From a virus (lineage: Duplodnaviria > Caudoviricetes): 34,970 nt of DNA. The position numbers were made by a program, and so were the translations under genes. Below, one piece after another: positions 11,668 through 33,389 of the stretch. Below the pieces are notes generated by a model. It ran no database searches. It was not told the DNA's origin and saw only the letters and a list, made by a program, of their open reading frames with translations. Location of the stretch: IMG/VR virus record IMGVR_UViG_3300020045_006069, positions 1-34,970 of that record, one strand, 5' to 3'. The first letter of the stretch is position 1. Each line of letters starts with the position of its first letter.

Positions 11668-11920
11668 CTGCCACACTTGCCACACTTGAAACTAAGTTCA
11701 TGGCGCATCGAATCTTCCGAACTGTGGCACGCTCCACACTTGATTCCCCAGTTGCCACACTTGCCACACTTGCCACACTTGCCACACTTGCCAACTGTGG
11801 CAACTATCTGAATTCCACACTTCAAATGATTCTTGCCACAGTTGGGAACCACATATGCGATATCATGTTACGTCTCAAGTGTGGCAAGTGTGGCAAGTGT
11901 GGCAACGAAATTCCACAGTT
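11668..11920. repeat. Direct and inverted 9-bp TTGCCACAC iteron-like array (putative replication origin)
   Basis: Four tandem TTGCCACAC at 11752-11787, two at ~11668-11686, three inverted CAAGTGTGG at 11876-11902, plus scattered CCACA cores; immediately 3' of the primase-helicase. Confidence 0.75.
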
Positions 11921-14139
11921 CACCATTGCACCCCGCTGCCGCTTTCGTTGTCGTCTGATTCCAGGTCTTTGAGGTACGGCCAATCAGCCGGAACCCACCA
12001 AACCCACTTCGAGCTTCCGTCCATATCGGTACGCTTTTTGGCTTTAGGCAACCCTAATTCGGCCTTGGCGTCGAATATGGAATCGCGGCTTACGCCTTCC
12101 TCGCGAGCGGCCTTAAACAATTCATCACTATCCCACTCAAGTTTGAGCTTGAATGCGGCAATGAGCCAATCGCGAGCGGCTACCTTACGCGGCTTCGTGT
12201 CGCCCGAAACGGCTTCATCGGCGGTGATGTCTACGTCGCCAAGCCATTCGATACGTGCAGGTCCGCCCGGATCGTTTTCATTGGCGGACAGAATGCGATA
12301 GCTAAGCCCCTTGCGTTCCCTACCGTTGTTGTTTTTCATGCCGATGAATAATCGACGTTCCGGGTCTGCCGGGTCTCTGGTGAAGATATGCGCCGATCTA
12401 ACGGCATTGACCCAGGCCACGCTTCCCATGACACGCATCATGGCGGACACCTTGCCGCCGCTTCCCTTGTTGACGTGGGTAATGAACACCATCGCAACTT
12501 CGCGATCCTTGCACCATTCCTTGAACGGCGAAATCAGGCTTCGCAGTTCGGCGTTCTTGTGGTCGTCAGTTTCACCGAGGTAATTGGTTGGCGGGTCAAT
12601 AACGATCAGGCGCACATTGCCCAATTGACGCCACGCCACTTCGAGCAATTCCAGGTCCGCCAAATAGTACTTGTCCAGCCATTCGCCCTTGAGAAACGCC
12701 ACCTTGTTTAGATCGGCCTTAGCTTCGATCAGGCGGGGAACCAGCGTATCGTCGGGATCATCTTCGCCGCTGATGTACAGGACGGAACCGGGCGTTTCGC
12801 ACGGCGAAGAATCGGGCCAGTCTCGGCCTGTTGAAATTCTGGCCGCGATGTCGCACGACACAAACGATTTCCCAAGTCCGCCCATTCCGGCAAATGTCGT
12901 CATCTTCGCCGCGGGGATTCTGTCTTGCCACAACCACTTGACACGCTTGGGCGGAACTTCGCTCGCCAACAGGATAACTTTATCCCCAGGCTTAAACCGG
13001 CATTCATCCTTGTCCGGCGGCTTGCCGTTGCGTTCGTGCTTGTTCTCATTCAACAGGTTCCCACGCTCGCCACTACCCTTCTGAGCGTCCGCAATCTTGT
13101 GCCGCAACTCTCTTTCCGTCCACGGTGGGCTACACGTCTCATTCCACTCAGACAACACGACATACGCTTCGTCATCATTTAGGTCGAAGCCGCGTATCAC
13201 CTTGAGGGCCGCAACGAACGTATTCGTATGCCCTTGTTGGCCGCTTACTGCGCCCGGTATCTTCTTGAGATACGCTCGCGCCCTATCCATGATTGGCGTG
13301 TTCGGAACTGAGATAGCTCGACCACTGAAAGCATTGTCTACGAATTGCTCCAATTCGCTTGTTGGTTCCGGCTTGACATTCTCAACAGGTTCAGGTTGTT
13401 TGGTGGCTTGCGTCTTTGCATTAGGCGATAGGAACGAATGTAATTGGTCGAATGTTAGGATGCTAGGCGGCGATGGAGCGTAAACGATAGACGACATGCG
13501 ATGAGGACGTTCAGTAGTGTTCTCACCTTTCCTGACCCATGTTCCCGGCAGTTTGCTGATTCGGCTGCGATTATGTACGGCCCGATCTATCTCGACTTCG
13601 GGCGTCGAGAACATATCGGAAATCTTGTGTATCACCGCTCGTAGTGTAGCGTCTGTTAAATCGTCGCAAGGTAAGTCAATCCGGTAAAGCAAGTGATAGC
13701 CGTTGCCGCTGTCGATGGTGACGGGGATAGGCCATCCTTTGCCCGCCAATGAATTGCATATCGTCGTTGCCATTTCGCGGCACTTGGCGCGTTCGGCGTC
13801 TGTTGCCGATTGATCTTTGTTTGTCTCATCTTTGACCCGATCTATGTCAATGAGCAACCATCTACGTTTCGCAATATCTTCCTTGCGTGCCGAACGTGTT
13901 ATCTTTGAACTAAGTGGATTTAAACTAAAGTACACGCCTTGATAGTTCGATAGTTCATCTATGAATGAACATAACGAATCTAGTTCGTCGCCTTTGGCGA
14001 CGAAACTATTGGCGTATGGGAGTGTTCTAATTTCGATGTATAGGTCAGGATCGGCGAGAATGGCAAGGGCTTGGCGGCAAGCATCAACTTGAGAGGGCGG
14101 GGCCATGTTGACGGCCCGCATTCGGAATGCCGAGGTCAT
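11920..14139 (-). CDS. Primase-helicase (AEP/RepB-like primase, PriCT-like domain, AAA_25 RepA-type helicase)
   Basis: LLIDID, DSGNGYHL, SRISKLPGT; WNETCSPPWTEREL; Walker A GMGGLGKS, SGED, IVIDP, ITHVNK. Confidence 0.88.
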   Translation of the reverse strand: MTSAFRMRAVNMAPPSQVDACRQALAILADPDLYIEIRTLPYANSFVAKGDELDSLCSFIDELSNYQGVYFSLNPLSSKITRSARKEDIAKRRWLLIDIDRVKDETNKDQSATDAERAKCREMATTICNSLAGKGWPIPVTIDSGNGYHLLYRIDLPCDDLTDATLRAVIHKISDMFSTPEVEIDRAVHNRSRISKLPGTWVRKGENTTERPHRMSSIVYAPSPPSILTFDQLHSFLSPNAKTQATKQPEPVENVKPEPTSELEQFVDNAFSGRAISVPNTPIMDRARAYLKKIPGAVSGQQGHTNTFVAALKVIRGFDLNDDEAYVVLSEWNETCSPPWTERELRHKIADAQKGSGERGNLLNENKHERNGKPPDKDECRFKPGDKVILLASEVPPKRVKWLWQDRIPAAKMTTFAGMGGLGKSFVSCDIAARISTGRDWPDSSPCETPGSVLYISGEDDPDDTLVPRLIEAKADLNKVAFLKGEWLDKYYLADLELLEVAWRQLGNVRLIVIDPPTNYLGETDDHKNAELRSLISPFKEWCKDREVAMVFITHVNKGSGGKVSAMMRVMGSVAWVNAVRSAHIFTRDPADPERRLFIGMKNNNGRERKGLSYRILSANENDPGGPARIEWLGDVDITADEAVSGDTKPRKVAARDWLIAAFKLKLEWDSDELFKAAREEGVSRDSIFDAKAELGLPKAKKRTDMDGSSKWVWWVPADWPYLKDLESDDNESGSGVQW

Positions 14140-14233: not shown

Positions 14234-14947
14234 TTAGTAAGCCACTTCATTCGGCTCATCAAACGGAACGCCGGAATCCTCTTGAGGCTTTCCGTTCCGT
14301 TGCGGCTTGGCAGTCGAGCCGCTCATCATTTCACGCCATTCCTTCGACTTGGCGATGTACTCGTGTACCTTCTCGCCATAGACGCGGGGCAGCCAGGGCC
14401 ATTCGGGAAGGTCCGCGTTCATCGCAGGCTCGAACTGCTTGGCCTTGTTCCTCAAGTACAACCCATCCGTGAGCGACCACATGAAGGGTTGCGTTTTCGG
14501 GGCAGGCGGCGCTGGCAAGCCACGCGGAAGCTGGCCGAAGTCTTCGAGCTTGGCGTAGTCGCGATCCTTCGACGTTTTCCCGTGGGTGATCGTCAAGAGG
14601 GCAGGATGACAGAGACGGGCGGAATAGTCGATCATTTCGCCGTCCGCGAACTTCTTGCCCATCCACTTCTCGTAACTGATGCGGAGCTTCGCCTTCTCAT
14701 GCGTGGATAGCGTGTACACGCCACCAATGATGTGATTGCGTGTCGGCTCTTTTGTCGTCGGCTCGCCCGTAAGTTCCCACACCAGCATGACCTGATGAGA
14801 TTCCGACGTTTCCCCTCCGTAGGTTCGCGTCTGAGTCCCTAAGTCGATCATGCCGACAAGCACGCCAGGGATAGCGCCCTCGGGTTGGATTTCAAAATCT
14901 TCCCCTTCGCCCTGACCGCTCTTAGCCTGTCCGCCAAACATAGCCAT
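14234..14947 (-). CDS. Phage replication protein, SSB-like (NGO0469-like family)
   Basis: IDLGTQ..VWEL..YTLSTHEKAKLR..W.GKKF; acidic PF-containing C-terminal tail; sits next to the primase-helicase. Confidence 0.7.
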   Translation of the reverse strand: MAMFGGQAKSGQGEGEDFEIQPEGAIPGVLVGMIDLGTQTRTYGGETSESHQVMLVWELTGEPTTKEPTRNHIIGGVYTLSTHEKAKLRISYEKWMGKKFADGEMIDYSARLCHPALLTITHGKTSKDRDYAKLEDFGQLPRGLPAPPAPKTQPFMWSLTDGLYLRNKAKQFEPAMNADLPEWPWLPRVYGEKVHEYIAKSKEWREMMSGSTAKPQRNGKPQEDSGVPFDEPNEVAY

Positions 14948-17593: not shown

Positions 17594-17862
17594 TGGTTAG
17601 CTTCGCTTTCTCCAGCTGCTTCACGCATCAGGTCGTTGATGTGTCGCGGGCCTTCGTTAGCGGCAAGCATCATTTCGGCCTTGGTCCGGCGCTTGCGTTT
17701 CGGTGCAGGCGGGGCTTCCTCGTCCTTGCCTGTCATGCGGGCGATGAATGCGTCGATGTCGTCAATGCGGGATTGTGCCGCGTCACGGTCGGCCTCGTGT
17801 GATTTCTTTCGTTCTTTCAATCGCTCGATCAGGTCGCGGTCATCGTCGGATAGTTTGGCCAT
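17590..17862 (-). CDS. Coiled-coil protein with KRKRRTKAEM motif
   Basis: AAAGGA RBS within a start-associated repeat. Confidence 0.7.
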   Translation of the reverse strand: MAKLSDDDRDLIERLKERKKSHEADRDAAQSRIDDIDAFIARMTGKDEEAPPAPKRKRRTKAEMMLAANEGPRHINDLMREAAGESEANQ

Positions 17863-17895: not shown

Positions 17896-18099
17896 TCAAA
17901 TGTCGCCTTGCTCAACGATGTTCGTTACTTGCGTCTCGTTGCGTTTCTTTTCCCGGATCGCCTTGCGGTCGATGACCAGGGACTTCGGCGCATCGAATGC
18001 CAATCTTACTTTCCCCTTGCAGATTTGGGCTATGGTGACAACGATGTCATCACCGATTAGGAACTGCTCGCCCACCTTGCCGCTAAGCACCAATGACAT
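17896..18099 (-). CDS. csrA: Carbon storage regulator CsrA/RsmA-like RNA-binding protein
   Basis: LVLSGKVGEQFLIGDDIVVTI..GKVRLAFDAPKSLVIDRKAI matches the CsrA pattern LILTRRVGE.L.IGDDV.VTV..QVRIGV.AP..V.VHR.EI. Confidence 0.88.
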   Translation of the reverse strand: MSLVLSGKVGEQFLIGDDIVVTIAQICKGKVRLAFDAPKSLVIDRKAIREKKRNETQVTNIVEQGDI

Positions 18100-18120
18100 T
18101 TGAGTAGACTCCGTTCGTGT

Positions 18121-18594
18121 TTATTCTTCGTCGGGCACTTTGTAAGGCGTCAACAGATTGAACGCTTCATCAATTCGCTTGTCGAGTTCGTCGCGGTCAG
18201 CGATTAGTCCGCCGATCTTGAAGATGATCGAGTCGTTGTCAGGACCGAGAGGGTAACATAGCTCGGCTGCTGCTTTGGCGATTTCGCCTTCGGCGTGAAA
18301 CTTCCCTTTGCTCAGGTGCTTTATGCGTACCTCATCTTTAGTGCCATACGAGCGATACGACGACTTCGCGGCGATGCTGGTGATTTCAACTGGGTCGAGT
18401 CGCGAGCCGTAAACGGCTTTGACCCGCTCGAATGGCTTACCCTTCGGCTTTGACACCGGCTTGTCGATGGTGGCTTTGGCTTCCTTGAGGGAAACCGCTT
18501 CCTTCTCCCGACCGCGAAGCGTGAATAGCCATTTGTCCGTCACTTCGTTGTAGGTGATTTCAACGTCGTGATATGTAACCTTGACTTCGTTCAC
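18121..18594 (-). CDS. Hypothetical protein
   Basis: GGAG RBS before GTG 18594 (alternative ATG at 18609). Confidence 0.7.
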   Translation of the reverse strand: MNEVKVTYHDVEITYNEVTDKWLFTLRGREKEAVSLKEAKATIDKPVSKPKGKPFERVKAVYGSRLDPVEITSIAAKSSYRSYGTKDEVRIKHLSKGKFHAEGEIAKAAAELCYPLGPDNDSIIFKIGGLIADRDELDKRIDEAFNLLTPYKVPDEE

Positions 18595-18619
18595 TGCGGT
18601 TATCTCCATTGAAAGAAAA

Positions 18620-18725
18620 GAGCGGATAGCACCGTTTCATTGGCATGCAACGGTTCGCCAACCGTCGCACTTCACAGGGCCGGAGCCGGCAACGCACCGA
18701 TTCCGGTTTGCGGCGCTACCCGCTC
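18620..18725 (-). ncRNA. Structured RNA motif, copy A (three-way junction followed by U-tract)
   Basis: 15-bp closing stem with G-U pairs on the minus strand, two internal hairpins, then TTTTCTTT. Confidence 0.75.
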
Positions 18726-18744
18726 GTGGTCCGTAGTCAAAAAA

Positions 18745-18849
18745 GGCGGATAACGCCGTTTCATTCCGGGTGTGCCGGTTCGGCAACCGTCACATCACGC
18801 TGGCCTGCGCTGGCAACGCACCAGTGCAAAAGCCGCGACGTTATCCGCC
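18745..18849 (-). ncRNA. Structured RNA motif, copy B (three-way junction followed by U-tract)
   Basis: 14-bp closing stem, same loop TGCGTTG and junctions GTGA and AATGAAA as copy A, then TTTTTT. Confidence 0.75.
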
Positions 18850-19230
18850 CGTGGTTCGCTGGGCGAGTATCAGGTCGATTTCAGGCAGCAACAGTCTCCG
18901 CATTTCATTTCGCGGCGTGTCGTCGAACCAGTTCAGAAAGTGCCTGACGCCTGCCGGTTCCTTCAATTCCTCGTCGCACATATGGCAGCGTTCGGCGAAG
19001 AACTTTTCCACTTCGCCAACTGTTTTTAGGTCGTTGCCTTTCCAGCCGCACCATCCGGTAGCGCATGCGCCTTCAATCGGCCAGTCTTGTACACACATGA
19101 GCGGCGGTGATGTCGTCGCACCTTGGAGTAGTTTCGGATCATCGGTTTCGACTGCTTCTCGAAGCGAAACGAGGCCAGAGGTCGGTAAGAATTTGGCCAG
19201 CGCTCGCCAAGCTAGTTTCCATAGTTCCAT
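18841..19230 (-). CDS. Conserved hypothetical protein of Gemmataceae type
   Basis: DDPKLLQGATTSPPLMCVQDWPIEGAC..TVGEVEKFF..FLNWFDDTPR (family recalled, not searched); CAGGAG RBS before ATG 19230. Confidence 0.75.
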   Translation of the reverse strand: MELWKLAWRALAKFLPTSGLVSLREAVETDDPKLLQGATTSPPLMCVQDWPIEGACATGWCGWKGNDLKTVGEVEKFFAERCHMCDEELKEPAGVRHFLNWFDDTPRNEMRRLLLPEIDLILAQRTTGG

Positions 19231-19250
19231 TGCGTTCTCCTGTCTTGCCG

Positions 19251-19853
19251 CTAAGCATTCTTCGCGGTTTGCAGGTGGATCGGTAAATAACCGTGCCATT
19301 TCATTGACATACAGCCGAACGGCACGCGAGCGCCTTCAAGTATCGGTTCGCCGTATTTTGCGGACGTTCGGATAGACTTGGATTTGCCAGCCGCGAATTC
19401 AACCCATTTATCACCGCATCCGGTATCCAAAACTTCGCAGCATGGGTCGATAATCCAACCGTGTGCATGTTCGCTTGCCACATGGCCGACGAATACGCTA
19501 AAGCCGTAGCCGTGCGGGATAAATACGAGTGAGTTTTCGCCGACGATGAGCACGATTTGGTTCTCCGGTTTGAGTAGTCCGACGAGTCCGCCGAGTCCGC
19601 TGAGTCCGCCGCGTCCGACGAGTCCGCCGAGTCCGCTGAGTCCGACGAGTCCGCCGCGTCCGACGAGTCCGCCGAGTCCGCTGAGTCCGACGAGTCCGCC
19701 GCGTCCGACGAGTCCTAAGTCGTAGATTTGGCCGCGCCAGTATGCCGCTTGCGGGTCGCCGTGTTCTTCCAGCCAATCTGCATAGACCAATTGCGGGCCA
19801 CGGTCGCGCGGATGGTCGTTAATCATTTTCTGAAACGGTATGCGGTCGTGCAT
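19251..19853 (-). CDS. TIGR02996 domain protein with (Gly-X-X)16 repeat
   Basis: FQKMINDHPRDRGPQLVYADWLEEHGDPQA, then GLV-GRG-GLV-GLS-GLG repeats; AGGAG RBS. Confidence 0.85.
   Translation of the reverse strand: MHDRIPFQKMINDHPRDRGPQLVYADWLEEHGDPQAAYWRGQIYDLGLVGRGGLVGLSGLGGLVGRGGLVGLSGLGGLVGRGGLSGLGGLVGLLKPENQIVLIVGENSLVFIPHGYGFSVFVGHVASEHAHGWIIDPCCEVLDTGCGDKWVEFAAGKSKSIRTSAKYGEPILEGARVPFGCMSMKWHGYLPIHLQTAKNA
19575..19718. repeat. 9-bp tandem repeat x16 with a 45-bp higher-order period
   Basis: Units GAGTCCGCC / GAGTCCGCT / GAGTCCGAC / GCGTCCGAC; 19611-19655 equals 19656-19700. Confidence 0.95.
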
Positions 19854-19883
19854 TAAACTCTCTCCTGGGCTTGCCGCTAAGCA

Positions 19884-20087
19884 TTAGTTGAGCGTGCTTA
19901 TTTTCCCAATGCTGGCGGCTATCTTCACGTGCAGTTTCTTAAACTCGTTAATCGATTCCATGTTGCACTTGTCGCCTTCCGCGTCCGGGTTGTCGGCGTC
20001 GATAGCGAGCAACCTATCTCGGTGGGCGAGAGCAAGTGCAAATAGCAGGTGTTCTCGTTCAGCGAGAGACAATGCTAGACGTTTCAT
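19884..20087 (-). CDS. Hypothetical protein
   Basis: ATGA coupling. Confidence 0.6.
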   Translation of the reverse strand: MKRLALSLAEREHLLFALALAHRDRLLAIDADNPDAEGDKCNMESINEFKKLHVKIAASIGKISTLN

Positions 20088-20290
20088 GGCTGCCTATCCT
20101 TCTCGGCCCGGATCGTGGCTCGGGCGCGTTCGGCAATCCCGCCCGGTGCATAAATTTCGCTCATGGTTGGCGTTCCCGGCTTCACAACCACGTGCCGCGT
20201 TCGTCGGGCAATGTCGTCATCGTGCCGTGCGTCGTCGCGGTCGGGGTGGATGGAATGCTCTGGTTCGGTCAGGATGTCAGCGGTGGTCAT
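20084..20290 (-). CDS. Hypothetical protein
   Basis: ATGA coupling on both sides. Confidence 0.55.
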   Translation of the reverse strand: MTTADILTEPEHSIHPDRDDARHDDDIARRTRHVVVKPGTPTMSEIYAPGGIAERARATIRAEKDRQP

Positions 20291-20520
20291 TGGTTAGTCT
20301 CGCAGCGTTTCATTCCGAGCAGTTCGCGTACATCGTCGCGAACGTGAGCAGGTACGGCTAATCCACGTTCGTCGGGGTTTAGGAACGTCCGCAAGAAGGC
20401 GTGCAACTCGTCGAGGTTGTCCGCCGCATCGGTTAGTAGTCCCTGAACGTCCCAACTTAACGGGTTGTCGATGGCGTTTCGTAGTGCGATTTGGAGCGGT
20501 CTGCCGAATACGGTTTTCAT
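20287..20520 (-). CDS. Hypothetical protein
   Basis: GAGGGG RBS; ATGA coupling. Confidence 0.65.
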   Translation of the reverse strand: MKTVFGRPLQIALRNAIDNPLSWDVQGLLTDAADNLDELHAFLRTFLNPDERGLAVPAHVRDDVRELLGMKRCETNQ

Positions 20521-20693
20521 GTTCCCCTCAATGCGTTTGCTTCTTCTCTACTTTCGATTTTCAGAATCTCATATCCGCGTTTTGCGAGTTTCGTTGCCTC
20601 CGCTTTTGCAGCGGAAAGCGTGAGGTAATTCCATTGCGAGCAATTCACATTTGATCCGAGTCGGGCCGGTCGCTTGTACCATATACGGAACAT
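20517..20693 (-). CDS. Small early protein (58 aa)
   Basis: Manually translated MFRIWYKRP..AAKAEATKLAKRGYEILKIE..; AAAGGAG RBS. Confidence 0.65.
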   Translation of the reverse strand: MFRIWYKRPARLGSNVNCSQWNYLTLSAAKAEATKLAKRGYEILKIESREEANALRGT

Positions 20694-20704
20694 GGGCGGC
20701 TCCT

Positions 20705-20893
20705 TTAGTTGCCGTTGCGAATTCGCAATAGGGCGTCAACGAAGCACGTGTAACCGGGCATTGTGTTCCACAAGGCGATCACGTGATCGCGTTCGGCTTT
20801 GCTCATCACCTTGTCGAGTTGATCGGACCACGGGCCGTATTTGGCAGTGGCTTGTGCTTGCTGGACGATTTCAGCGGCGCGTTCGGCTGTCAT
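20705..20893 (-). CDS. Small early protein
   Basis: AAAGGGGAA RBS; YGPWSDQL..W.TMPG.TCF.DAL. Confidence 0.7.
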   Translation of the reverse strand: MTAERAAEIVQQAQATAKYGPWSDQLDKVMSKAERDHVIALWNTMPGYTCFVDALLRIRNGN

Positions 20894-20920
20894 TGGTTCC
20901 CCTTTGTGGTTCAGAGATTG

Positions 20921-20938
20921 GCGGGCGTCCTTGCCCGC
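20921..20938 (-). promoter_or_regulatory. CAAGGACG stem-loop (CsrA-type site) 1
   Basis: Minus strand GCGGGC-AAGGAC-GCCCGC. Confidence 0.6.
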
Positions 20939-20956
20939 TGCTTCCCGGTCGATGGA

Positions 20957-21139
20957 TCACCAGATTTCGTCAAGACGGCTCGCCATGCCTTCGAGTTCAT
21001 CCTCGAAGTCGGCGTACTCGTCGTTTTGGTTTTCGTCGGCCCATGTGTCCATTGCGATGGCAAGGGCGCGGAGTACGGCAGGCAGTCCGTTAGTTTCGAT
21101 CATGGACAGTAATTGGGCTTCGGTCGTTTGCGGCTTCAT
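20957..21139 (-). CDS. Small acidic early protein
   Basis: GGAGA RBS in the repeated linker; D/E-rich C-terminus. Confidence 0.7.
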   Translation of the reverse strand: MKPQTTEAQLLSMIETNGLPAVLRALAIAMDTWADENQNDEYADFEDELEGMASRLDEIW

Positions 21140-21174
21140 TGCAGTTTCTCCGGTTCGGGGTTAGTGGGAAAAAT

Positions 21175-21192
21175 GCGGGCGTCCTTGCCCGC
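21175..21192 (-). promoter_or_regulatory. CAAGGACG stem-loop (CsrA-type site) 2
   Basis: GCGGGC-AAGGAC-GCCCGC then ATTTTT. Confidence 0.6.
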
Positions 21193-21210
21193 CGCTTCCC
21201 GGTCGATGCA

Positions 21211-21543
21211 TCAAGACGGTTTCCAGTCACCGATTCCGCATGCCTCTAGGTCGATATGGCAAGCGGTCGCGGCTTGTTCCAGTTCGGCATTCTGAATGAA
21301 AATCGGCATGTTATCGAGGGTTAATTGGCATGCGGTCATACACTCGGCAAGGTCGCGGATTTCAGCAGCAAGATTGAATAGGTCTCTTGCCGGTTGTGAC
21401 GGTTTGCCCTTGTCCAGTTCGCCGCGAATCTGGAGACTCAGATCGTAAACCTTGCTGTTGCAAATCCGCACGGTGGTCTTGAGTTTCGCTTCGAGTTGTC
21501 GCCATTGATCGGCGGTGAGCATGAGTTGTTTGCGTCGGGCCAT
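21211..21543 (-). CDS. Helical early protein
   Basis: ATG 21543 follows the repeated linker with GGAGA. Confidence 0.7.
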   Translation of the reverse strand: MARRKQLMLTADQWRQLEAKLKTTVRICNSKVYDLSLQIRGELDKGKPSQPARDLFNLAAEIRDLAECMTACQLTLDNMPIFIQNAELEQAATACHIDLEACGIGDWKPS

Positions 21544-21578
21544 TGTCAGTTTCTCCGGTTCGGGGTTAGTGGGAAAAA

Positions 21579-21596
21579 TGCGGCGTCCTTGCCGCA
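21579..21596 (-). promoter_or_regulatory. CAAGGACG stem-loop (CsrA-type site) 3
   Basis: TGCGGC-AAGGAC-GCCGCA then TTTTT. Confidence 0.6.
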
Positions 21597-21609
21597 CGCT
21601 GCGAGCGGA

Positions 21610-21753
21610 TCAGGATGACCACACAACAACGTCCCATGCGCCAGCGTCCCAAGTCTCAGCGGCACATTGGCGGGCTTCGGCTTCGGTGAAGAACGTCACA
21701 CAATGCCCGTTGTCGTTTTGGCTCATCATGTAGGAAACGTGCCAGAATTGCAT
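21610..21753 (-). CDS. Small early protein (47 aa)
   Basis: Manually translated MQFWHVSYMM..FFTEAEARQCA..VVWSS; GAGGGAG RBS; first gene after a promoter. Confidence 0.65.
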   Translation of the reverse strand: MQFWHVSYMMSQNDNGHCVTFFTEAEARQCAAETWDAGAWDVVVWSS

Positions 21754-21797
21754 TGTCGGCTCCCTCATTTGCGTTTCGATCATTCACCACTACTTAC

Positions 21798-21826
21798 ACT
21801 ATAGTTTCGCTATAGCGTAGTGTCAA
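21798..21826 (-). promoter_or_regulatory. Strong sigma70-like early promoter
   Basis: TTGACA-17-TATAGT; palindrome CGCTATAGCG in the spacer; A-rich upstream region. Confidence 0.85.
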
Positions 21827-21839
21827 GTGGATTGTGGAA

Positions 21840-22037
21840 TTATTTTCCAAGTTTTTTTCGGTGCCGTTCGATCCATTGGCGGATTGCTTCGACGGCGCAT
21901 GATGTCATGGGTCGGTCAAGGGCGGTTGCGATCTCGCGTAGTTCGGCATGGATTTCAGGTAGCAAGCCAATCAACATCGGCTTGCGTCCGCTCGCCTTGA
22001 GACTCGCACCGCCGCTAGGTCGTTTAGTTGTTTCCAT
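21840..22037 (-). CDS. RHH/Arc-like DNA-binding protein, probably leaderless
   Basis: PMLIGLLPEIHAELREIATALDRPMTSCAVEAIRQWI; ATG 22037 lies 7 nt after TAATAT. Confidence 0.7.
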   Translation of the reverse strand: METTKRPSGGASLKASGRKPMLIGLLPEIHAELREIATALDRPMTSCAVEAIRQWIERHRKKLGK

Positions 22038-22044
22038 GCCGATC

Positions 22045-22073
22045 ATATTAGCATTCCTAAGTTGGCCGGTCAA
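22045..22073 (-). promoter_or_regulatory. Sigma70-like promoter (leaderless)
   Basis: TTGACC-17-TAATAT. Confidence 0.7.
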
Positions 22074-22435
22074 ATTTTTTTGACCAGTCCATCCCTCAAG
22101 GCTTGCGCCCAGGCAATCGGGCGTACCATGTAGCCCGCTCGCGATGTTCGCGTTTGGTCTTCGAACTGGTACGGGGATACGGTCGATAACCAGTCCAATT
22201 GAACGAGGGTTTCCAACATGCCGCGCGGCAGGCCGATTGATACGGGCGTGATGGTTCCGCCGATCTGTGCTCGGCGGTCATGTAGCACGCGAAGTAGTGC
22301 GGATCGTTCCGGGGCAGTGAGCCAGGGCCATCGCACGGGGCTGGACGTGGACTCATGGCGTTTCGCTGGCTTGTCATCGTGGTAAACGTCGATCATGCCA
22401 ACGGGCATATCGGCGGAGGTTGTAACTAAACGCAT
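22070..22435 (-). CDS. Hypothetical early protein
   Basis: GAGGA RBS in the repeated linker. Confidence 0.65.
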   Translation of the reverse strand: MRLVTTSADMPVGMIDVYHDDKPAKRHESTSSPVRWPWLTAPERSALLRVLHDRRAQIGGTITPVSIGLPRGMLETLVQLDWLSTVSPYQFEDQTRTSRAGYMVRPIAWAQALRDGLVKKI

Positions 22436-22457
22436 TGGCGGGTTCCTCGGTTCGGGG

Positions 22458-23060
22458 TTAGTTGGCGTTTGCGTAATGGCGTTTGACTAACTTCGTTGCG
22501 GCTTTGGTCGCGTTCTTTTGCACTCGATCGTATCGCGTTCGGTGTTGGCGGTGGTCGTTGTACCATAGATGCCAGTATTCGCACGCGACAGCGCCCAAGA
22601 TGAAAAGCACATCCCAATTGACTTGACTAATGACCCTGCCGATGGATGTATCGACGACATGGCGATTGATGTTTGATAAATCGCTGTCGATTCTTAGTTT
22701 CAATGCTGTCGAACAGTTGCGTATTCGTTGTGCTAGTTCACATTCTCCGCGCTCTTCCAGCCAGTCCGCCACTACGTCGGCGGCTCCCGGTTCGCCAGCA
22801 AACAGAGTTTTAACGAATGGCTTTAGCAGGGCTTTGCGTTCGTTCTCCGCGCGTCGTTCGGCGCTTAACGCTTCCTTCCTCTGTTGCGCCTTCGCGGTGG
22901 CGCGTTCGATCTTTCGATTGCGGCGCTTGGCTTCTTTCACCGCATCGGCCCGGTTCTTAAAGAGTCGCGACGATTTACGGGTCTCTCGATTGAACGCCGC
23001 CCATAGTGTCGGTTCGTCGTCGGATCGGCCAGGGATGCTAACGTGAATCCAAGGGTTCAT
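22458..23060 (-). CDS. Early protein with an internal TIGR02996-like domain
   Basis: PFVKTLFAGEPGAADVVADWLEERGECELAQRIR; start refined to ATG 23060 after the linker. Confidence 0.75.
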   Translation of the reverse strand: MNPWIHVSIPGRSDDEPTLWAAFNRETRKSSRLFKNRADAVKEAKRRNRKIERATAKAQQRKEALSAERRAENERKALLKPFVKTLFAGEPGAADVVADWLEERGECELAQRIRNCSTALKLRIDSDLSNINRHVVDTSIGRVISQVNWDVLFILGAVACEYWHLWYNDHRQHRTRYDRVQKNATKAATKLVKRHYANAN

Positions 23061-23083
23061 TTGCGGGTTCCTCGGTTCGTGGG

Positions 23084-23299
23084 TTAGTTGTAGTTTGGTT
23101 CGGGAGCGAATCGCGGAACTGGTCCGGGCGTTAGCTTTATTACTACGCTTCTGATCTCGTGGTTTGTTGTTGATCCTTCGGCTTTTTTGGCTTGCAATTC
23201 GGCTTTTTCGCGACTCTTGAAAGGACCGTACCAATCGGAAGAATAATTGCCTAGTCCATATCCAGAATCGTAAGTAGTGACGACTACAACATAATGCAT
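23084..23299 (-). CDS. Small early protein (YGPFKS.E.AE motif)
   Basis: AAGGA RBS in the linker. Confidence 0.7.
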   Translation of the reverse strand: MHYVVVVTTYDSGYGLGNYSSDWYGPFKSREKAELQAKKAEGSTTNHEIRSVVIKLTPGPVPRFAPEPNYN

Positions 23300-23323
23300 T
23301 GCGGTTTCCTTCATAGTTCGGGT

Positions 23324-23554
23324 TTAGTTGGCGTTGTACTCGAAACAGTCTGGAGGCATGGCCCCGTTTTGCTTGAAGCCGCGATTAGCAAGCCAGGTCT
23401 CGCAGGCTTTGAGGGATTCGGCACCACCCTGTTGAGGCCAGTATCCGCGAACTACGTCGCCAACTATCACCGCGTCCGGGTGATCGGTTGTAACAAACCA
23501 GTCTCTTTCGTGGGTGATCGGGTTTACAACCGATCCTAATGATGCTTGTTGCAT
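23324..23554 (-). CDS. Small early protein
   Basis: GGAG RBS in the linker before ATG 23554. Confidence 0.65.
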   Translation of the reverse strand: MQQASLGSVVNPITHERDWFVTTDHPDAVIVGDVVRGYWPQQGGAESLKACETWLANRGFKQNGAMPPDCFEYNAN

Positions 23555-23624
23555 TTGCGGGTACTCCGGTTTGGGGTTTAAGATCGGCCGCGCCCTGAAC
23601 GATAGAGCGCGGCAAGGGATCAGG

Positions 23625-24011
23625 CTAGATAACGGGCGGTGATTCTTCGATATTCTGGGCAGCATTGGCCCACGCTTCGGCCTCGGTATCGCACCAGTTG
23701 GAAATGTCGAAGCGTTGCATAGTATCGTAAATGCGGAATCGTCCAAAAAACGATTTCGTAACAGTGGCATCGGGGAACACTTCAAGCACGGCATCACGGT
23801 CAGCGGATAGCTTGCCTTCCGCCTCGACGTGGGCGTCAAGGCTCGCCAGTTGACGACGTAAGCCTTCGACGATTGGCCGCACGGCATCGGCTGCATTGGC
23901 GAGTCGGGTGAAGTCGGCCCGGTCTGAGTCGCGGCCAGGCTCCACGGTGATCGCGGAGTAGTAGAGGTTTTCCAGGGCGGACAGGTCGGCGAGGGAGATT
24001 GAGAGAGTCAT
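23625..24011 (-). CDS. Early protein
   Basis: GGAG RBS in the linker; C-terminal TEAEAWANAA motif. Confidence 0.7.
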   Translation of the reverse strand: MTLSISLADLSALENLYYSAITVEPGRDSDRADFTRLANAADAVRPIVEGLRRQLASLDAHVEAEGKLSADRDAVLEVFPDATVTKSFFGRFRIYDTMQRFDISNWCDTEAEAWANAAQNIEESPPVI

Positions 24012-24034
24012 TGCGGGTTGGCTCCGGTTTGGGG

Positions 24035-24274
24035 TTAAGAATCTTGGATGATGAACTTCGGGTCGTCGTTTTTGGCTCTTACTATGTAGTACCCGTTGAC
24101 GGCCGGGTTGTCGGTTATTTCCGAAAGTCGTCGCTCCGCGTTGGATTTTCGGCGATAAGCGTTGACGAATGTGTAACCGGATTCGTCAACGTCGCATTCT
24201 TGGACGGCGTAACGGTTGACGTTTACTTCGGCTTGCTGACGGATCACGAAAACATACTTCGGTGTGCTGGTCAT
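24035..24274 (-). CDS. Small early protein
   Basis: AAGGA RBS in the linker. Confidence 0.7.
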   Translation of the reverse strand: MTSTPKYVFVIRQQAEVNVNRYAVQECDVDESGYTFVNAYRRKSNAERRLSEITDNPAVNGYYIVRAKNDDPKFIIQDS

Positions 24275-24299
24275 TGCGGGTTTCCTTCATAGTTCGGGT

Positions 24300-24677
24300 T
24301 TAGTTGGTGAACGGGGTCGGTATTGCGGCCGGGGAAGCGGCGAAGATTTTTTCCAGTAGCGTTTGCGCCGCTCGTTTCAGCCCGGTCGGTGTGCAGGCGA
24401 AGGGCGCTAGTAGACTTTCGAGCGAGTGTACTATGTCGCTTTCGATTGGCGAGCCAGCGACCAGGGTAAGGCAATCATCCTCGATTGAACTGGCGGCGGC
24501 TTGTTCGACATGCATCCGCATTTCATCTTCGGTGCAATCGTTGTCCCAACAGTAGTCTTTGATTTCGTCCGGTTGCGGCGATTCGTATTGTTCGTAGAAT
24601 CCGAACCACGATTCCGCGTCCGAGACTTCGAGAGCCTCGAATTGTTTCAAGGTCAGTTTGATCGAGTAGGTTTCCAT
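24300..24677 (-). CDS. Acidic early protein
   Basis: First gene after a promoter; AAGGGGAA RBS; D/E-rich N-terminal half. Confidence 0.7.
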   Translation of the reverse strand: METYSIKLTLKQFEALEVSDAESWFGFYEQYESPQPDEIKDYCWDNDCTEDEMRMHVEQAAASSIEDDCLTLVAGSPIESDIVHSLESLLAPFACTPTGLKRAAQTLLEKIFAASPAAIPTPFTN

Positions 24678-24723
24678 TGTCGTTTCCCCTTTTGTTTGTG
24701 TCGTTCACTCATTCTACAACATT

Positions 24724-24783
24724 AATCTACCATATATACGTTCGCTGTCAAGCGATTGTTGCGGAATATTGTCGAAATATTCC
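24724..24783 (-). promoter_or_regulatory. Sigma70-like early promoter with upstream palindrome
   Basis: TTGACA-16-TAGATT with TGn extension; GGAATATT-GTCGA-AATATTCC at 24763-24783. Confidence 0.7.
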
Positions 24784-24797
24784 AAAATAGTTGCCGA

Positions 24798-25019
24798 TCA
24801 AGACGTAAGTTCCTTGTCAGGCTTCGGGTTGCGTTTACCCAATTTTCGACCGAATTTGATTCCCGGTAGTCGTTTTTCGGGGTAAGGCGTCGAATCGTCG
24901 ATCATGACGCGCCCCGTGTCATCGAGGGTGAACGGGATGCGGCCAGAGTTCACGTAAGCGTAGACCGATGCCGCGTTGCGTTCATGCAGTTTGGCGTATT
25001 GGCGGACTGTTACGAGCAT
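24798..25019 (-). CDS. Helix-turn-helix DNA-binding protein (excisionase/MerR-like)
   Basis: VTVRQYAKLHERNAASVYAYVNSGRIP; GAGGA RBS. Confidence 0.75.
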   Translation of the reverse strand: MLVTVRQYAKLHERNAASVYAYVNSGRIPFTLDDTGRVMIDDSTPYPEKRLPGIKFGRKLGKRNPKPDKELTS

Positions 25020-25053
25020 GGGTGGTAATCCTCTTGAGGGTGGAACGGATAAA

Positions 25054-25069
25054 GGGCCGTCCGTGGCCC
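25054..25069 (-). promoter_or_regulatory. CACGGACG stem-loop (CsrA-type site) 4
   Basis: GGGCC-ACGGAC-GGCCC then TTTAT. Confidence 0.55.
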
Positions 25070-25076
25070 ACCAGGC

Positions 25077-25559
25077 TTAACGCAAATAGCGAATGTACTC
25101 GGCACCGGGCTTGCCGAAGTCGATTTGGAAGATATTGCCGCGAGCATGTTTCGCTGGCGCTCGCCATGATGCCGGCTTGTGGATGTCGCCGCGTTTGACG
25201 TTGCCGAGGGCTTTGGTCCGATGATCGACCAGGGCGACAAAGCAGTGAACGGAGCGAGATAAAACTTGAACGCGGACCACTTTAGCCCATTTCGGCCCGC
25301 GTTCGACAATGATTTTCGTTTCGTTGATATCAGTTTGGTATTGTTGGTTGTAGGCGTTATCGCGTTCATCAAACGCGGCTTGCGTCCACGCGATATAGCG
25401 AGCCAATGCCGCGTCGAAGTCGTCACCGGCTAAAGCCCGCTGTTGTTCGGCCTTGTCGCATTCGCCGTTTTCTTCCAGGTAGTCCGCATAGACGGCGTGG
25501 GGTCCGGGCAGGCCGGGAGACTCTTTAATTATTTCGATGAATGGCGTTTCGTTCAGCAT
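25077..25559 (-). CDS. TIGR02996 domain fused to a GD..KPASW.APAKHARGNI phage domain
   Basis: PFIEIIKESPGLPGPHAVYADYLEENGECDKAE; C-terminal SVHCFV..GDIHKPASWRAPAKHARGNIF. Confidence 0.85.
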   Translation of the reverse strand: MLNETPFIEIIKESPGLPGPHAVYADYLEENGECDKAEQQRALAGDDFDAALARYIAWTQAAFDERDNAYNQQYQTDINETKIIVERGPKWAKVVRVQVLSRSVHCFVALVDHRTKALGNVKRGDIHKPASWRAPAKHARGNIFQIDFGKPGAEYIRYLR

Positions 25560-25599
25560 GGTCGGTTTCCAAGTTAGGGTGTGAAACGGGGATGGTAAG

Positions 25600-25613
25600 G
25601 GCCATCCTTGGCC
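25600..25613 (-). promoter_or_regulatory. CAAGGATG stem-loop (CsrA-type site) 5
   Basis: GGCC-AAGGAT-GGCC. Confidence 0.6.
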
Positions 25614-26660: not shown

Positions 26661-26702
26661 ACTATATCCGACTATCGACAACGTGTCAAGTAATGTTGTC
26701 GA
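26661..26702 (-). promoter_or_regulatory. Strong sigma70-like early promoter with inverted repeat around the -35
   Basis: TTGACA-17-TATAGT; TCGACAAC (26675-26682) / GTTGTCGA (26695-26702). Confidence 0.85.
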
Positions 26703-29190: not shown

Positions 29191-31824
29191 ATGGGATTGA
29201 TTAATTGGCTTGCGTCGAAGTTCAATCGACCCGTCGAGAAGGCGACTTCCAACGACACGCCGAACGCGCCCACTTCGATACGCGGCAAAGACCCGCGCCC
29301 ATTCCTTGCGGGTTCGGCCCCCGGCCTATGGTCGAGCAATCACTTAGATGAATCGAAGAATGTCACGTCGTTCCAGTTCGTTGCCATTCGCCAAAAGGCG
29401 ACGATGTGCAGCAACGCGGAACTGAAGGTACACCGCGTCGAGGACAAGGCGGATTTGTCGGCGCGATTGGCGAAGGTTGAACGGTCAATCCGCAAGTGTC
29501 GCACTATTGCTGACGCGGTAGAGCGAACGTACAAGACGGAGCGATTGGAACAGAAACGGCAAGCGTTATCCGACCGGCTTCACAAGATGTCAACGGGCAC
29601 TGGTCCGGAATCTGTGAAGGGCGATAGGACGCCAGTCGATTCCTCTCACCCGTTATACCGGCTCTTATCGCGTCCTAATCCTGAATGGTCAGGCTCGACG
29701 TTCATCTATGCTTTGGCTCAACAGATTAGTTCGACAGGTGTGGGTTTAGTTTGGGCCATTCGCAACGGTGCAGGAATCCCCGTTGAGTTGTACGTCATTC
29801 CTACTGGGCTTGCGATCCCGCGCCTTCCAACACCGGCGTACCCGAACGGAAGTTACTACATAACTCCGATCAGCACATGGGGCGTTGCTCCAAACGATGT
29901 TTGGTCAGACGGAGTTATTGGGCAAGCCATGTTGACCGGCGCTGAAGTAGACAAGCGCGATGTTAAGAAGATTTGCTGGCCTCATCCGTTCTTCTTAACA
30001 GACGGTCTGTCTCCGATGTCGGCCGGCTCGTTATGGGTTGACTTGGGCAATGAAATGGATCGGGCCTCGTGGTATCGGTTCCAGAATGCGGAACGTCCGG
30101 GAATGATCTTCAAACGGGACAAGGATATTGACCCTGACCCGGCGGACGTTGCACAGTTCCGCGAGGACTTGAAGGCCGATGCCGCTGGCACGCCGAACAC
30201 TGGGAAGCACTTGATTCTCCCACCGGGCATTGAGCCGGTGAACTGGAACAATACCGAACGGGAACTTGAGTTTGTTGACTCGCGTCCTCAAATCCGCGAT
30301 ATGAATTTAGCCCTTCACGGTCTGACGCCTATCTCATTCGGCTTTGCAGAGGCACAAGCATACGCGGCGTATTGGGCGGCGATCAAGCAAACTACCGAAC
30401 TATCGGTTCAACCGCTACTCGGTCTCATCGGTGGCGAACTGACGGAACTTCTAGGAACGGCGTTCCAAGACGGACGATATGAGATAACCTACAACGCGCC
30501 CGCTATCGACGACCCGCAATTACTAGAGAATCGTTTGCAAACGGACATCGACGCAGGGAATGTGCTATTGGTCAAAGAGTATCGGGCGATGCGTGGCTTG
30601 CCGCTACTTGGCGACGAACGCGACGACCAGTTCGTGGGCGAAGTGACTAACGTTCGCGTGCAGGCTCAAGACGCCGATCCCACAACGCCGGGCATTCAAG
30701 TCGAGGACAAAGGCGAGACCGGCGGTGGGGGCGGGAAGGATGAGGGCAAGGGAACTGGCAACGACAAGAAGGGCGAGGATAAAGGTCCGGGCGTGGAATC
30801 ACCGTTCAAAGCCGCTCCCGGTCGGTCAACCAAGTCACGTCGTCGTCTGACGATGATAAGAAAAGGTGTGTTCAGGGAAGAAGATCATCCAAGGGCGAGC
30901 GATGGTAGGTTCGGCGAGAAGCCCGGCGATAGTTCCGGTAGTGACGACAACAAAAAGCGCCCACCGAAACAATCGCCGGGGAATACGTTCCAAGATTCGG
31001 CGAAGTCAGCGCATGAAGCGTTCAGTAGCGGACAGATAGACGCGGATGAGTTCCGTAGTCGCGTTGAATCTATGGTCGAAGAATACGACGCGAGTTTGTC
31101 GGACGCCTTTGATACTTACCACTCCAAGGAAGTGAGCGCAACGCAGCACAGGGTTGGCGAGCAAATAGTCGATCATCCCGATGCGGCGAACGCATTCAAA
31201 GAATACACCAATGAGTTAGAATCCATTAGGTCTGACTTGTCCAATGCCGCTGACGCGATCATAGATAGCGCCGACGATGAAGATGCGTTTGCGTCATCCT
31301 TCGACGCATGGCAAGAGGAACGTCAACGGGCTTCCAAACGACTCGCGCAAGCGACGATGGAATACAACAATGCGGTCGATGCAGTGAACTACGAACTGTA
31401 TCAAGATGCAGAGTCGCGGACAGCGGACCTGAACAGCGACATGTACGAAGGCGACCCGGAAGGCGCAGAGGGCGACGCGAAGTTAATCAACTCGGAACTT
31501 GAAGCCGAAGGCAATCCGTATCGCGTTGTCTATGCCGAAGGCGATGACGACATGGAAGGCGAATGGGTTGCCGAATTGCCCAAGTCATCGGACAACATAA
31601 CCAAGACGATCAACGCCATGCGGCGGAAGTACACCAAGACGGTGAACCGTTTGAAGCGTCAGGGAAAATTAGACAAGACGCTGGCTGACTTACCGTCTAA
31701 GATTGGCGAGCAGTTAGCCAAGGTTATGGAAGTCAAGACGAGCGCCCCCCGTAAGCGGCATGTGGCGTTGGTTGTGGACCCGGAGACGGAACGGGTGAAG
31801 GGCATGGACATCACAGAGGAATGA
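29191..31824 (+). CDS. Portal protein (HK97-like) with long C-terminal extension
   Basis: HPLYRLLSRPNP, PVELY, GLSPM, FQNA.RPG, N.GK.LILP.G, EYRAMRGLP; follows terL. Confidence 0.9.
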   Translation: MGLINWLASKFNRPVEKATSNDTPNAPTSIRGKDPRPFLAGSAPGLWSSNHLDESKNVTSFQFVAIRQKATMCSNAELKVHRVEDKADLSARLAKVERSIRKCRTIADAVERTYKTERLEQKRQALSDRLHKMSTGTGPESVKGDRTPVDSSHPLYRLLSRPNPEWSGSTFIYALAQQISSTGVGLVWAIRNGAGIPVELYVIPTGLAIPRLPTPAYPNGSYYITPISTWGVAPNDVWSDGVIGQAMLTGAEVDKRDVKKICWPHPFFLTDGLSPMSAGSLWVDLGNEMDRASWYRFQNAERPGMIFKRDKDIDPDPADVAQFREDLKADAAGTPNTGKHLILPPGIEPVNWNNTERELEFVDSRPQIRDMNLALHGLTPISFGFAEAQAYAAYWAAIKQTTELSVQPLLGLIGGELTELLGTAFQDGRYEITYNAPAIDDPQLLENRLQTDIDAGNVLLVKEYRAMRGLPLLGDERDDQFVGEVTNVRVQAQDADPTTPGIQVEDKGETGGGGGKDEGKGTGNDKKGEDKGPGVESPFKAAPGRSTKSRRRLTMIRKGVFREEDHPRASDGRFGEKPGDSSGSDDNKKRPPKQSPGNTFQDSAKSAHEAFSSGQIDADEFRSRVESMVEEYDASLSDAFDTYHSKEVSATQHRVGEQIVDHPDAANAFKEYTNELESIRSDLSNAADAIIDSADDEDAFASSFDAWQEERQRASKRLAQATMEYNNAVDAVNYELYQDAESRTADLNSDMYEGDPEGAEGDAKLINSELEAEGNPYRVVYAEGDDDMEGEWVAELPKSSDNITKTINAMRRKYTKTVNRLKRQGKLDKTLADLPSKIGEQLAKVMEVKTSAPRKRHVALVVDPETERVKGMDITEE

Positions 31825-32421: not shown

Positions 32422-32507
32422 CGGATTTTGTAGAATAAACGACGGGATTGGATGTATGTGGCATCGCAACCCCGTCTAACACCGAAACGCTGAAAGGAGC
32501 GTTCGCA

Positions 32508-33389
32508 ATGTCTGAATCGAATTCTATGAAACGTAGAACCGGCTGGACCTTACTTGAGTTGCTCGTCGTAATCGCAATCATCGCGATTCTGATTGGCTTG
32601 CTCTTACCCGCGATCCAGAAGGTGCGGGAAGCGGCGGCGCGGATCAAGTGCGCCAACAACTTGAAGCAATGCGGACTCGCGGCGTTGAACTACGAATCGG
32701 CCCGCAAGGAACTGCCCAACGGCGGCGCATACGGTGCGAAGCATAACGTTGGCTTGTTCCATCACATTCTGCCATTCATCGAAGCCCGCGTCACGCTGAA
32801 TCACAACGGCGTCACGATTGACACGTCGCCGATGTTCTTTTGCCCGACGCGGCGCGGCGTCACGGTGATGGATACGCCCTGGGGACCGGCTTCGCTGAAT
32901 GACTACGTTTGGCCCACTGAGCCGCATTACGGTAACCCGGCTGACCCGTTCCATGCTCACGGATTCTGGACCGGCGAATGGACAACGGCAGTTTCGCCGA
33001 CGTGGTTCCCAACGTGGTTCAATTACAAGTCGATCTATCACCGCATTCCGCCGCAACGAACGACCATTGCCATGATCACCGACGGCGCGTCATCGACGAT
33101 GCTGCTATCGGAAAAGAGCATCGACCCGAACAAGTACAGCGGCGGCAGCAATGGGGACTACGGCAGCGTCTATCTGTCGTTGAATCCGCACGTGTCGCGA
33201 GTCATCACTCGCACACCACTTCGGGACCGACCAGGATACAGCGACGAGTATTTCGGCAGTGCTCACCCGAACGGTCTGAATGTCTTGTTCGTCGATGGGC
33301 ACGTTGACCATGTGAGTTATTCGGTCAACGGCAAGGTGTGGAAGGCACTCGGCACACGCGCGGGGCGGGAGGTCATCAACGGTGAATGA
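32508..33389 (+). CDS. DUF1559 family prepilin-type protein with H-X9-DG domain
   Basis: [43 protein letters not shown]; [14 protein letters not shown]; [18 protein letters not shown]; AAAGGAG RBS. Confidence 0.95.

Follow-up and report, generated by a model that had tools for sequence, protein, structure and literature searches.

A 34,970-nt stretch of viral DNA (the window: positions 1 to 34,970 of the linear IMG/VR record IMGVR_UViG_3300020045_006069, Duplodnaviria; Caudoviricetes, estimated to be 44% complete) carries a csrA gene and, in the leaders of five small early genes, five hairpins that each present GGA in a six-nucleotide loop (Table 1). We tentatively propose that the hairpins are operators for host CsrA in early-gene cassettes, where they would repress the five genes. 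We regard them as CsrA-type sites because they match the CsrA/RsmE consensus, lie in leaders, place the loop GGA 30–37 nt from the GGA of the Shine-Dalgarno (SD) sequence, and recur with other stems in unrelated phages. The original prediction, made from the letters of the window alone, was that phage or host CsrA controls the early genes. Its CsrA-type sites stand; its phage-encoded switch is weak, given that co-occurrence with csrA is borderline, that phage T4 has the element and no csrA, and that the phage CsrA lacks the R6-E46 pair.

From these features we infer how binding, bridging to the SD and repression might proceed, and which CsrA would act. A CsrA dimer, most likely the host's, would dock on the hairpin loop with high affinity, and the docked protein would reach the SD GGA 30–37 bases downstream, leading to less translation of the five small early genes. 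Sites 4 and 5, where folding predicts a competing helix that hides the GGA, would need more free CsrA before they responded. Because csrA is ~2.8 kb beyond site 1, and two structured RNAs with U-tails lie in front of it, host CsrA would be the first to meet the early mRNAs. Since the R6-E46 pair is missing and the gene is downstream of these two terminator-like RNAs, the phage CsrA would act later, as a modifier rather than a necessary partner.

Table 1. Hairpins, associated genes, csrA and predicted promoters in the window
Feature	Position	Strand	Details
Site 1: 6-bp stem, AAGGAC loop	20921-20938	-	27 nt before ATG 20893; loop GGA to SD GGA 30 nt
Site 2: 6-bp stem, AAGGAC loop, then A and five U	21175-21192	-	35 nt before ATG 21139; spacing 33 nt
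Site 3: 6-bp stem, AAGGAC loop	21579-21596	-	35 nt before ATG 21543; spacing 32 nt
Site 4: 5-bp stem, ACGGAC loop	25054-25069	-	34 nt before ATG 25019; spacing 31 nt
Site 5: 4-bp stem, AAGGAU loop	25600-25613	-	40 nt before ATG 25559; spacing 37 nt
Gene behind site 1, 62 aa	20705..20893	-	without family match
Gene behind site 2, 60 aa	20957..21139	-	without family match
Gene behind site 3, 110 aa	21211..21543	-	without family match; no usable Atlas match
Gene behind site 4, 73 aa, likely small helix-turn-helix protein (lead only)	24798..25019	-	Atlas feature score 0.90 to HTH_17 cluster
Gene behind site 5, 160 aa, TIGR02996-like N terminus and DUF7717	25077..25559	-	profile searches
csrA, 67 aa	17896..18099	-	PF02599, 55.5 bits (cut-off 27)
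ACGGA in csrA ribosome-binding site, possible autoregulatory site	18110..18114	-	sequence
Predicted sigma-70 promoter, 11/12	21798..21826	-	upstream of sites 1-3; of csrA too if read through
Predicted sigma-70 promoter, 11/12, hexamers identical to those at 21798..21826	26661..26689	-	upstream of sites 4-5

Five GGA-loop hairpins in early-gene leaders

The five predicted C-ANGGAY-G hexaloop hairpins are all present on the coding strand with GGA in the loop, 27–40 nt before five ATG codons, in good agreement with the ~25–40 nt first proposed. By sequence, five of five match the consensus for CsrA/RsmE, CANGGANG (PMC6692469; each cited paper is represented here by the portions available to us), and the distance from loop GGA to SD GGA falls inside the published range of 10–63 nt for CsrA bridging (PMC7652899, whose SELEX consensus the hairpins match as well). 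The CANGGAYG 8-mer alone is not enriched, with 17 matches versus a shuffle mean of 11.6 and 9/100 shuffles reaching 17. CANGGAYG in a stem of at least four Watson-Crick pairs occurs five times in the window; in 300 shuffles the count averaged 0.2 and never exceeded 2. Stem-bearing copies make up 5/23 of the matches to CANGGANG versus 24/1280 for other loop triplets (p 6e-5). All five CsrA-type hairpins are in leaders, as compared with 2/24 non-GGA hairpins.

The leaders are built on a recurring cassette of stop codon, hairpin, pyrimidine-rich spacer and SD, in which the hairpin site is an optional module. Between 20.7 and 26.2 kb there are seven promoter-free gaps, five with a GGA-loop hairpin and two with longer non-GGA hairpins; those that hold the five sites measure 57–71 nt between genes. 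Sequence comparison indicates that the module has spread by duplication between gene boundaries, as shown for sites 1–3: 39 nt are common to sites 1 and 2 (95% identity) and 37 nt to sites 2 and 3 (100%), with one G-C pair of site 2 lost on both sides in site 3 such that the stem is kept. Sites 4 and 5 have a 17-nt core in common. Hence, of the proposal that four different stems carry one core, the common core holds and the independence of the stems does not, the copies being partly duplicates.

The hairpins differ from both intrinsic terminators and non-coding sponge RNAs. Several had been described as followed by U-rich runs; we counted 3, 5, 5, 4 and 3 U in the 8 nt after the stems of sites 1–5, and only sites 2 and 3 have five; the U-runs carry no weight as evidence for the original prediction. 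None of the five shows a GC stem leading directly into a U-tract, and a terminator scan called one of them, site 2. As single hairpins in short gaps, they do not form a dedicated non-coding RNA with many GGA hairpins of the CsrB/RsmZ kind. A promoter scan found no promoter-like site in the five hairpin gaps, and promoter-like sites in the window as a whole are not above shuffles (7 versus 7.9). In context, the predicted probability of the GGA-loop fold is 0.98, 0.38, 0.78, 0.02 and 0.00 for sites 1–5. At sites 4 and 5, a competing 6-bp helix is predicted to pair the GGA with the downstream pyrimidine tract, favoured by 3.2 and 3.5 kcal/mol, and a U-A pair of this helix is changed to C-G between the two sites. 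An allosteric effect of the hairpins on the ribosome-binding site was considered and rejected, because constrained folding shifted the opening energy by at most 1.8 kcal/mol.

Separately, we observed a C-rich leader cassette ending in an SD that is common to most early genes (21136–24311; repeat families D2–D4, D9 and D16) and is likely a gene-shuffling joint.

The phage CsrA and its possible link to the hairpins

The csrA gene called in the original prediction is genuine, with a match to PF02599; it misses the equivalog cut-off of TIGR00202 (53.4 versus 70.1). Residues R45, L3, L5, K8, K39, I43 and I48 of the phage protein align to R44, L2, L4, R7, K38, V42 and I47. The glycine that had been noted in place of the usual arginine was borne out by alignments, which put it at R6, and E46 is also replaced, by alanine. 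Thus the R6-E46 salt bridge is absent from the phage CsrA, while R44 and the main RNA-contact positions are kept. In Campylobacter jejuni CsrA, R6A and E46A rank with the most severe losses, and the salt bridge has been termed indispensable for RsmE (PMC6692469). Both residues are present in 179/194 homologous domains, 80/82 viral domains and 20/20 host copies examined. Across the homologues they tend to be lost together (Fisher p 3e-4, uncorrected for kinship and with homologues chosen by likeness to the query), which suggests, from sequence, a compensated variant rather than decay. A structure model of the phage CsrA has a pLDDT of 91.5. The predicted homodimer scored 0.43, at the mark, against 0.00 for the best control, with agreement between runs in at least 93% of contacts and a pLDDT of at least 70; the mark is reached by 20/30 solved pairs and 1/23 single chains, and the score probably derives from the likeness of the model to existing solved CsrA dimers. 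The csrA ribosome-binding site does contain ACGGA, as had been claimed, and this is not distinctive, since ANGGA occurs in 9/32 curated leaders.

Profile searches identified a DUF1559 gene and five TIGR02996-type motifs in the window proteins, from which we consider a planctomycete the likely host. Among the best genome matches to a TIGR02996 alignment, 59/78 are titled Planctomycetota, mostly Gemmataceae, and 19/78 have other titles. Every one of the five planctomycete genomes examined has csrA, with 3–15 copies per genome, and R6, R44 and E46 are kept in all of the 20 best-scoring of 39 host copies. A longer hairpin pattern gave zero matches in five host genomes.

We used TIGR02996-bearing virus records as a stand-in for close relatives. 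A csrA-like gene is present in 13 of 36 such records. We analysed 27 of the 36 (a 354-kb record, a near-duplicate and seven records shorter than 20 kb were set aside) and divided them into a csrA-positive set (n=12, four of them below the cut-off) and a csrA-negative set (n=15, mostly incomplete). The positive records have 28 hairpins among 505 motifs (2.7-fold over expectation) and the negative records 14 among 453 (1.4-fold). The enrichment foreseen for csrA-positive planctomycete phages is therefore seen in direction, with borderline significance (Fisher p 0.081; per-record test p 0.059), and none of the 27 records has more than two hairpins in leaders. Across 80 viral csrA loci from mixed hosts, we found 31 hairpins among 849 motifs versus 16.9 expected, with a maximum of three on one strand within 10 kb. 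We conclude that the hairpins appear only weakly linked to phage csrA.

Two side observations concern the csrA region. Two tandem structured RNAs (18612–18738 and 18738–18862, minus strand) lie just upstream of the csrA gene pair, each with a long closing stem, two inner hairpins and a U-tail. Their folding z-scores are -4.9 and -2.8, and 36/36 pairs are kept in both copies, seven of them changed on both sides (two sequences only). They have no Rfam match, and searches of 167 loci, 101 host-order genomes and viral contigs gave no convincing homologue; they are possible csrA attenuators or antiterminators. In addition, a pseudo-palindrome, TGCTT-NNCGNN-AAG, occurs in five copies versus 0.28 in shuffles (19870–19883, 19244–19257, 18076–18089 on the minus strand, 17654–17667 and 14068–14083) and is a candidate DNA operator. 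Two copies are just 5' of SD sequences, two are in other genes with the centre reversed, and the 14-nt copy within csrA codons 4–8 yields the glycine that replaces R6.

The element in other phages and its rival explanations

In phage T4, whose genome contains no csrA, the same loop is found on another stem inside two early promoters, with a third hairpin close by. The leaders concerned are at 2429–2457, 50944–50972 and 49894; each hairpin is intergenic, and two of them are 29 and 32 nt from an SD GGA. In record G043 (26% complete; no csrA found), 20 copies fill the spacers of early promoters: region 39079–46912 (L298), an AT-rich fragment, has 20 near-identical promoters with the hairpin in a 17-nt spacer, before almost every small gene. 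As an observation of its own, a read-through RNA of this region would resemble CsrB. Locus L329 has four copies in its early region. The csrA-bearing coliphage PTXU04 (MK373772, L661/L662) has three intergenic hairpins among 24 motifs versus 0.38 expected, at 30446, 35884 and 48748, one of them in the holin leader. Its CsrA keeps R6 and R44 and lacks E46, and it is the one phage with a reported phenotype of csrA knockdown, an effect on plaque size (PMC11879866). The core shared by sites 4 and 5 has 41 viral matches, with the stem extended by an unsearched G in 25/41; csrA is seen in 5 of 39 of the records examined. Of 136 U-tailed hairpins sampled for this stem with the loop left free (120 loci of ~2100), none has an ANGGAN loop, and 7 of the 41 viral matches would fit the U-tailed pattern; the ANGGAN loop is thus not a generic terminator loop. 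The order of stop codon, hairpin, pyrimidine spacer and SD is repeated in early-gene arrays of L329 and L334 and in metagenome loci L479, L497, L499 and L535, and this layout is also seen in T4, G043 and PTXU04. We conclude that the feature probably belongs to a more general phage design and is not peculiar to this genome.

The feature would be a variant of known CsrA-site regulation. As in the leaders of Escherichia coli glgC and Pseudomonas fluorescens hcnA (PMC7652899, PMC6692469), a CANGGANG loop lies 5' of the SD GGA within bridging range. It differs from them in that it sits in phage early mRNA, in a repeated cassette, with a non-consensus second site and two sites predicted to be masked, and is known here from sequence. 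The hairpins also match the CAAGGAUG stem-loop bound by OspCsrA, and csrA-tldR loci are described as chromosomal, not phage-borne (PMC13418256). PF02599 is matched by 68 cultured phage records, and, like the CsrA/RsmA homologues of F116, PTXU04 and other phages (PMC7366521, PMC8450108, PMC11879866), the gene described here lies among small early or accessory genes. Unlike those homologues, its product has neither R6 nor E46, and there are candidate cis targets in its own genome. In the available portions of the same three papers, such cis targets are not described for any phage, and the role of phage csrA is either called untested or taken to be an action on host mRNAs. T4-type PeSL cassettes (PMC2839356, PMC4122927) likewise place a repeated intergenic stem-loop and an SD between small variable early genes, whereas the five units here lack a promoter and a consistent terminator tail, and their loop sequence is conserved; in contrast to T4 and G043, the window hairpins are not in sigma-70 spacers. 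GGA-loop hairpins are shared with the sponge RNAs CsrB and RsmZ, yet here they are single hairpins across coding operons, with no non-coding array and no Rfam match. We found no description of CsrA operator hairpins in phage early leaders in a literature search that covered few subscription journals, and PeSL alignment figures may show such loops.

Several observations weigh against operators for host CsrA. The five copies perhaps descend, as judged from their shared sequence, from two ancestors, and such shared ancestry means that the p-values overstate the case. A second GGA, proposed as a signal in four of five ribosome-binding regions, is present in all five; it is also present in 18/20 other early leaders, and none of the five hairpin leaders has ANGGA there, so it is non-consensus. 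It is the Shine-Dalgarno only and carries no weight as evidence. Sites 4 and 5 are not expected, on folding predictions, to form the GGA-loop hairpin unaided. Host DNA near TIGR02996 genes shows no excess of hairpins (19/712 versus 15.7 expected), and the difference between csrA-positive and csrA-negative records favours some role for the phage copy of CsrA. An SD and ATG within 75 nt follow 13/39 distinct viral and 16/105 metagenome matches to the core, versus 29/125 terminator controls. Phage F116 has no excess (1/50, inside a gene). The promoter-embedded copy is absent from KVP40, Aeh1 and RB49 and from six T4-like phages of cyanobacteria or alphaproteobacteria. The hosts of these six are not known to carry CsrA, and for Sinorhizobium meliloti a lack of chromosomal csrA is reported (PMC7366521); this small panel does not separate host groups. 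Phage phiM12 has one 5-bp copy despite a host reported to have no chromosomal csrA (S. meliloti; PMC7366521). Lastly, close relatives were not found by a CsrA search, by a search with the protein of 14234–14947 or with the hairpin of sites 1 and 2 (12 matches, none homologous).

We consider it unlikely that the window holds a self-contained switch, in which phage CsrA builds up after the first early genes and then shuts off the five hairpin genes and itself. The retention of R44, K7, K38 and the hydrophobic contacts, the predicted fold and homodimer (0.43 versus 0.00 for the control), a joint loss of R6 and E46 that fits a compensated variant, the higher hairpin count in the 12 csrA-positive than in the 15 csrA-negative records, and PTXU04, in which csrA matters for plaque size and three such hairpins are present, would all be in keeping with it. 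Against these stand the strong losses caused by R6A and E46A and the indispensable salt bridge of RsmE, the borderline p-values of that contrast, the failure of any of the 80 other viral csrA loci to exceed three hairpins per strand within 10 kb, and the presence of the element in csrA-less T4. Quite improbable, in our judgement, is a sponge or stabiliser, whereby the hairpins would draw host CsrA off its own targets or shield early mRNA and the next gene would not be blocked. CsrA does protect flhDC mRNA (PMC7652899), CsrB is stable in T4 infection (PMC9697503), the second sites are weak and non-consensus, and the G043 and T4 hairpins, being in promoter spacers, would be only on read-through RNA, with up to 20 per region. 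However, five sites on two transcripts are few, two of them are predicted to be masked, no dedicated non-coding unit exists, and the SD spacing of 30–37 nt is tight.

We likewise give little credence to an incidental loop, that is, generic PeSL-like cassette stem-loops (weak terminators, nuclease blocks or recombination joints) in which GGA was copied by duplication. The leaders are indeed made of repeats, two of the seven long promoter-free gaps hold non-GGA hairpins at the same position, a U-run follows sites 2 and 3, of which the former is terminator-like, and this short hairpin turns up in many bacterial settings. Nevertheless, three of the five have no U-run and the stems are short, none of the sampled terminators that share the stem has the loop, which turns up on unrelated stems in T4 and PTXU04, and the five cassettes have no built-in promoter. 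Very improbable is an operator at the level of DNA, in which a phage DNA-binding protein would recognise the inverted arms, about one helical turn apart, as its half-sites. In G043 the -35/-10 spacer of 20 promoters is taken up by the element, and the window encodes an Arc-like and a likely helix-turn-helix protein, but the five hairpins all occupy the coding strand, it is the arms that vary and the asymmetric loop that is kept, and no promoter overlaps the five sites.

Repression by host CsrA through the hairpins could be extended into a broader scheme, which we regard as doubtful. Unrelated phages, from T4 to those of planctomycetes, would read the Csr state of the host through early-cassette operators; high-copy versions would mimic CsrB on read-through mRNA; and the salt-bridge-less CsrA of this phage would heterodimerise with or displace the host protein, resetting control mid-infection. 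Phages are already known to carry csrA, in one case with an effect on plaque size. If true, cis targets in the early leaders of phages would give phage csrA and host CsrA a concrete job in the infection programme, and because T4 and PTXU04 share the element, the idea is testable in E. coli. For planctomycetes, with their many CsrA copies, the element would also offer a way into Csr regulation.

Other features of the window

In the window, a minus-strand block carries small early and replication genes, and the first of the plus-strand packaging genes are also present. Structure rows in Atlas for the product of the gene behind site 4 were below the naming bar. Word-index protein searches with CsrA and with a TIGR02996 segment matched only the window's own protein, and an Rfam scan of the window gave one weak tRNA-like arm and no match at the hairpins or the csrA region. 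The DUF1559 gene, prepilin-like and of a planctomycete host family, is at 32448–33389 on the plus strand, within the phage head-gene block. The five TIGR02996-type motifs found in this one phage are at 19540–19742 (gene 19251–19853) and in genes at 25559, 23060, 11636 and 10403. One such motif is followed by a 9-nt tandem repeat coding for GLG/GLV/GRG units. A cluster of 9-nt repeats in both orientations (11671–11902) adjoins the end of the primase/helicase gene and is a candidate replication origin.

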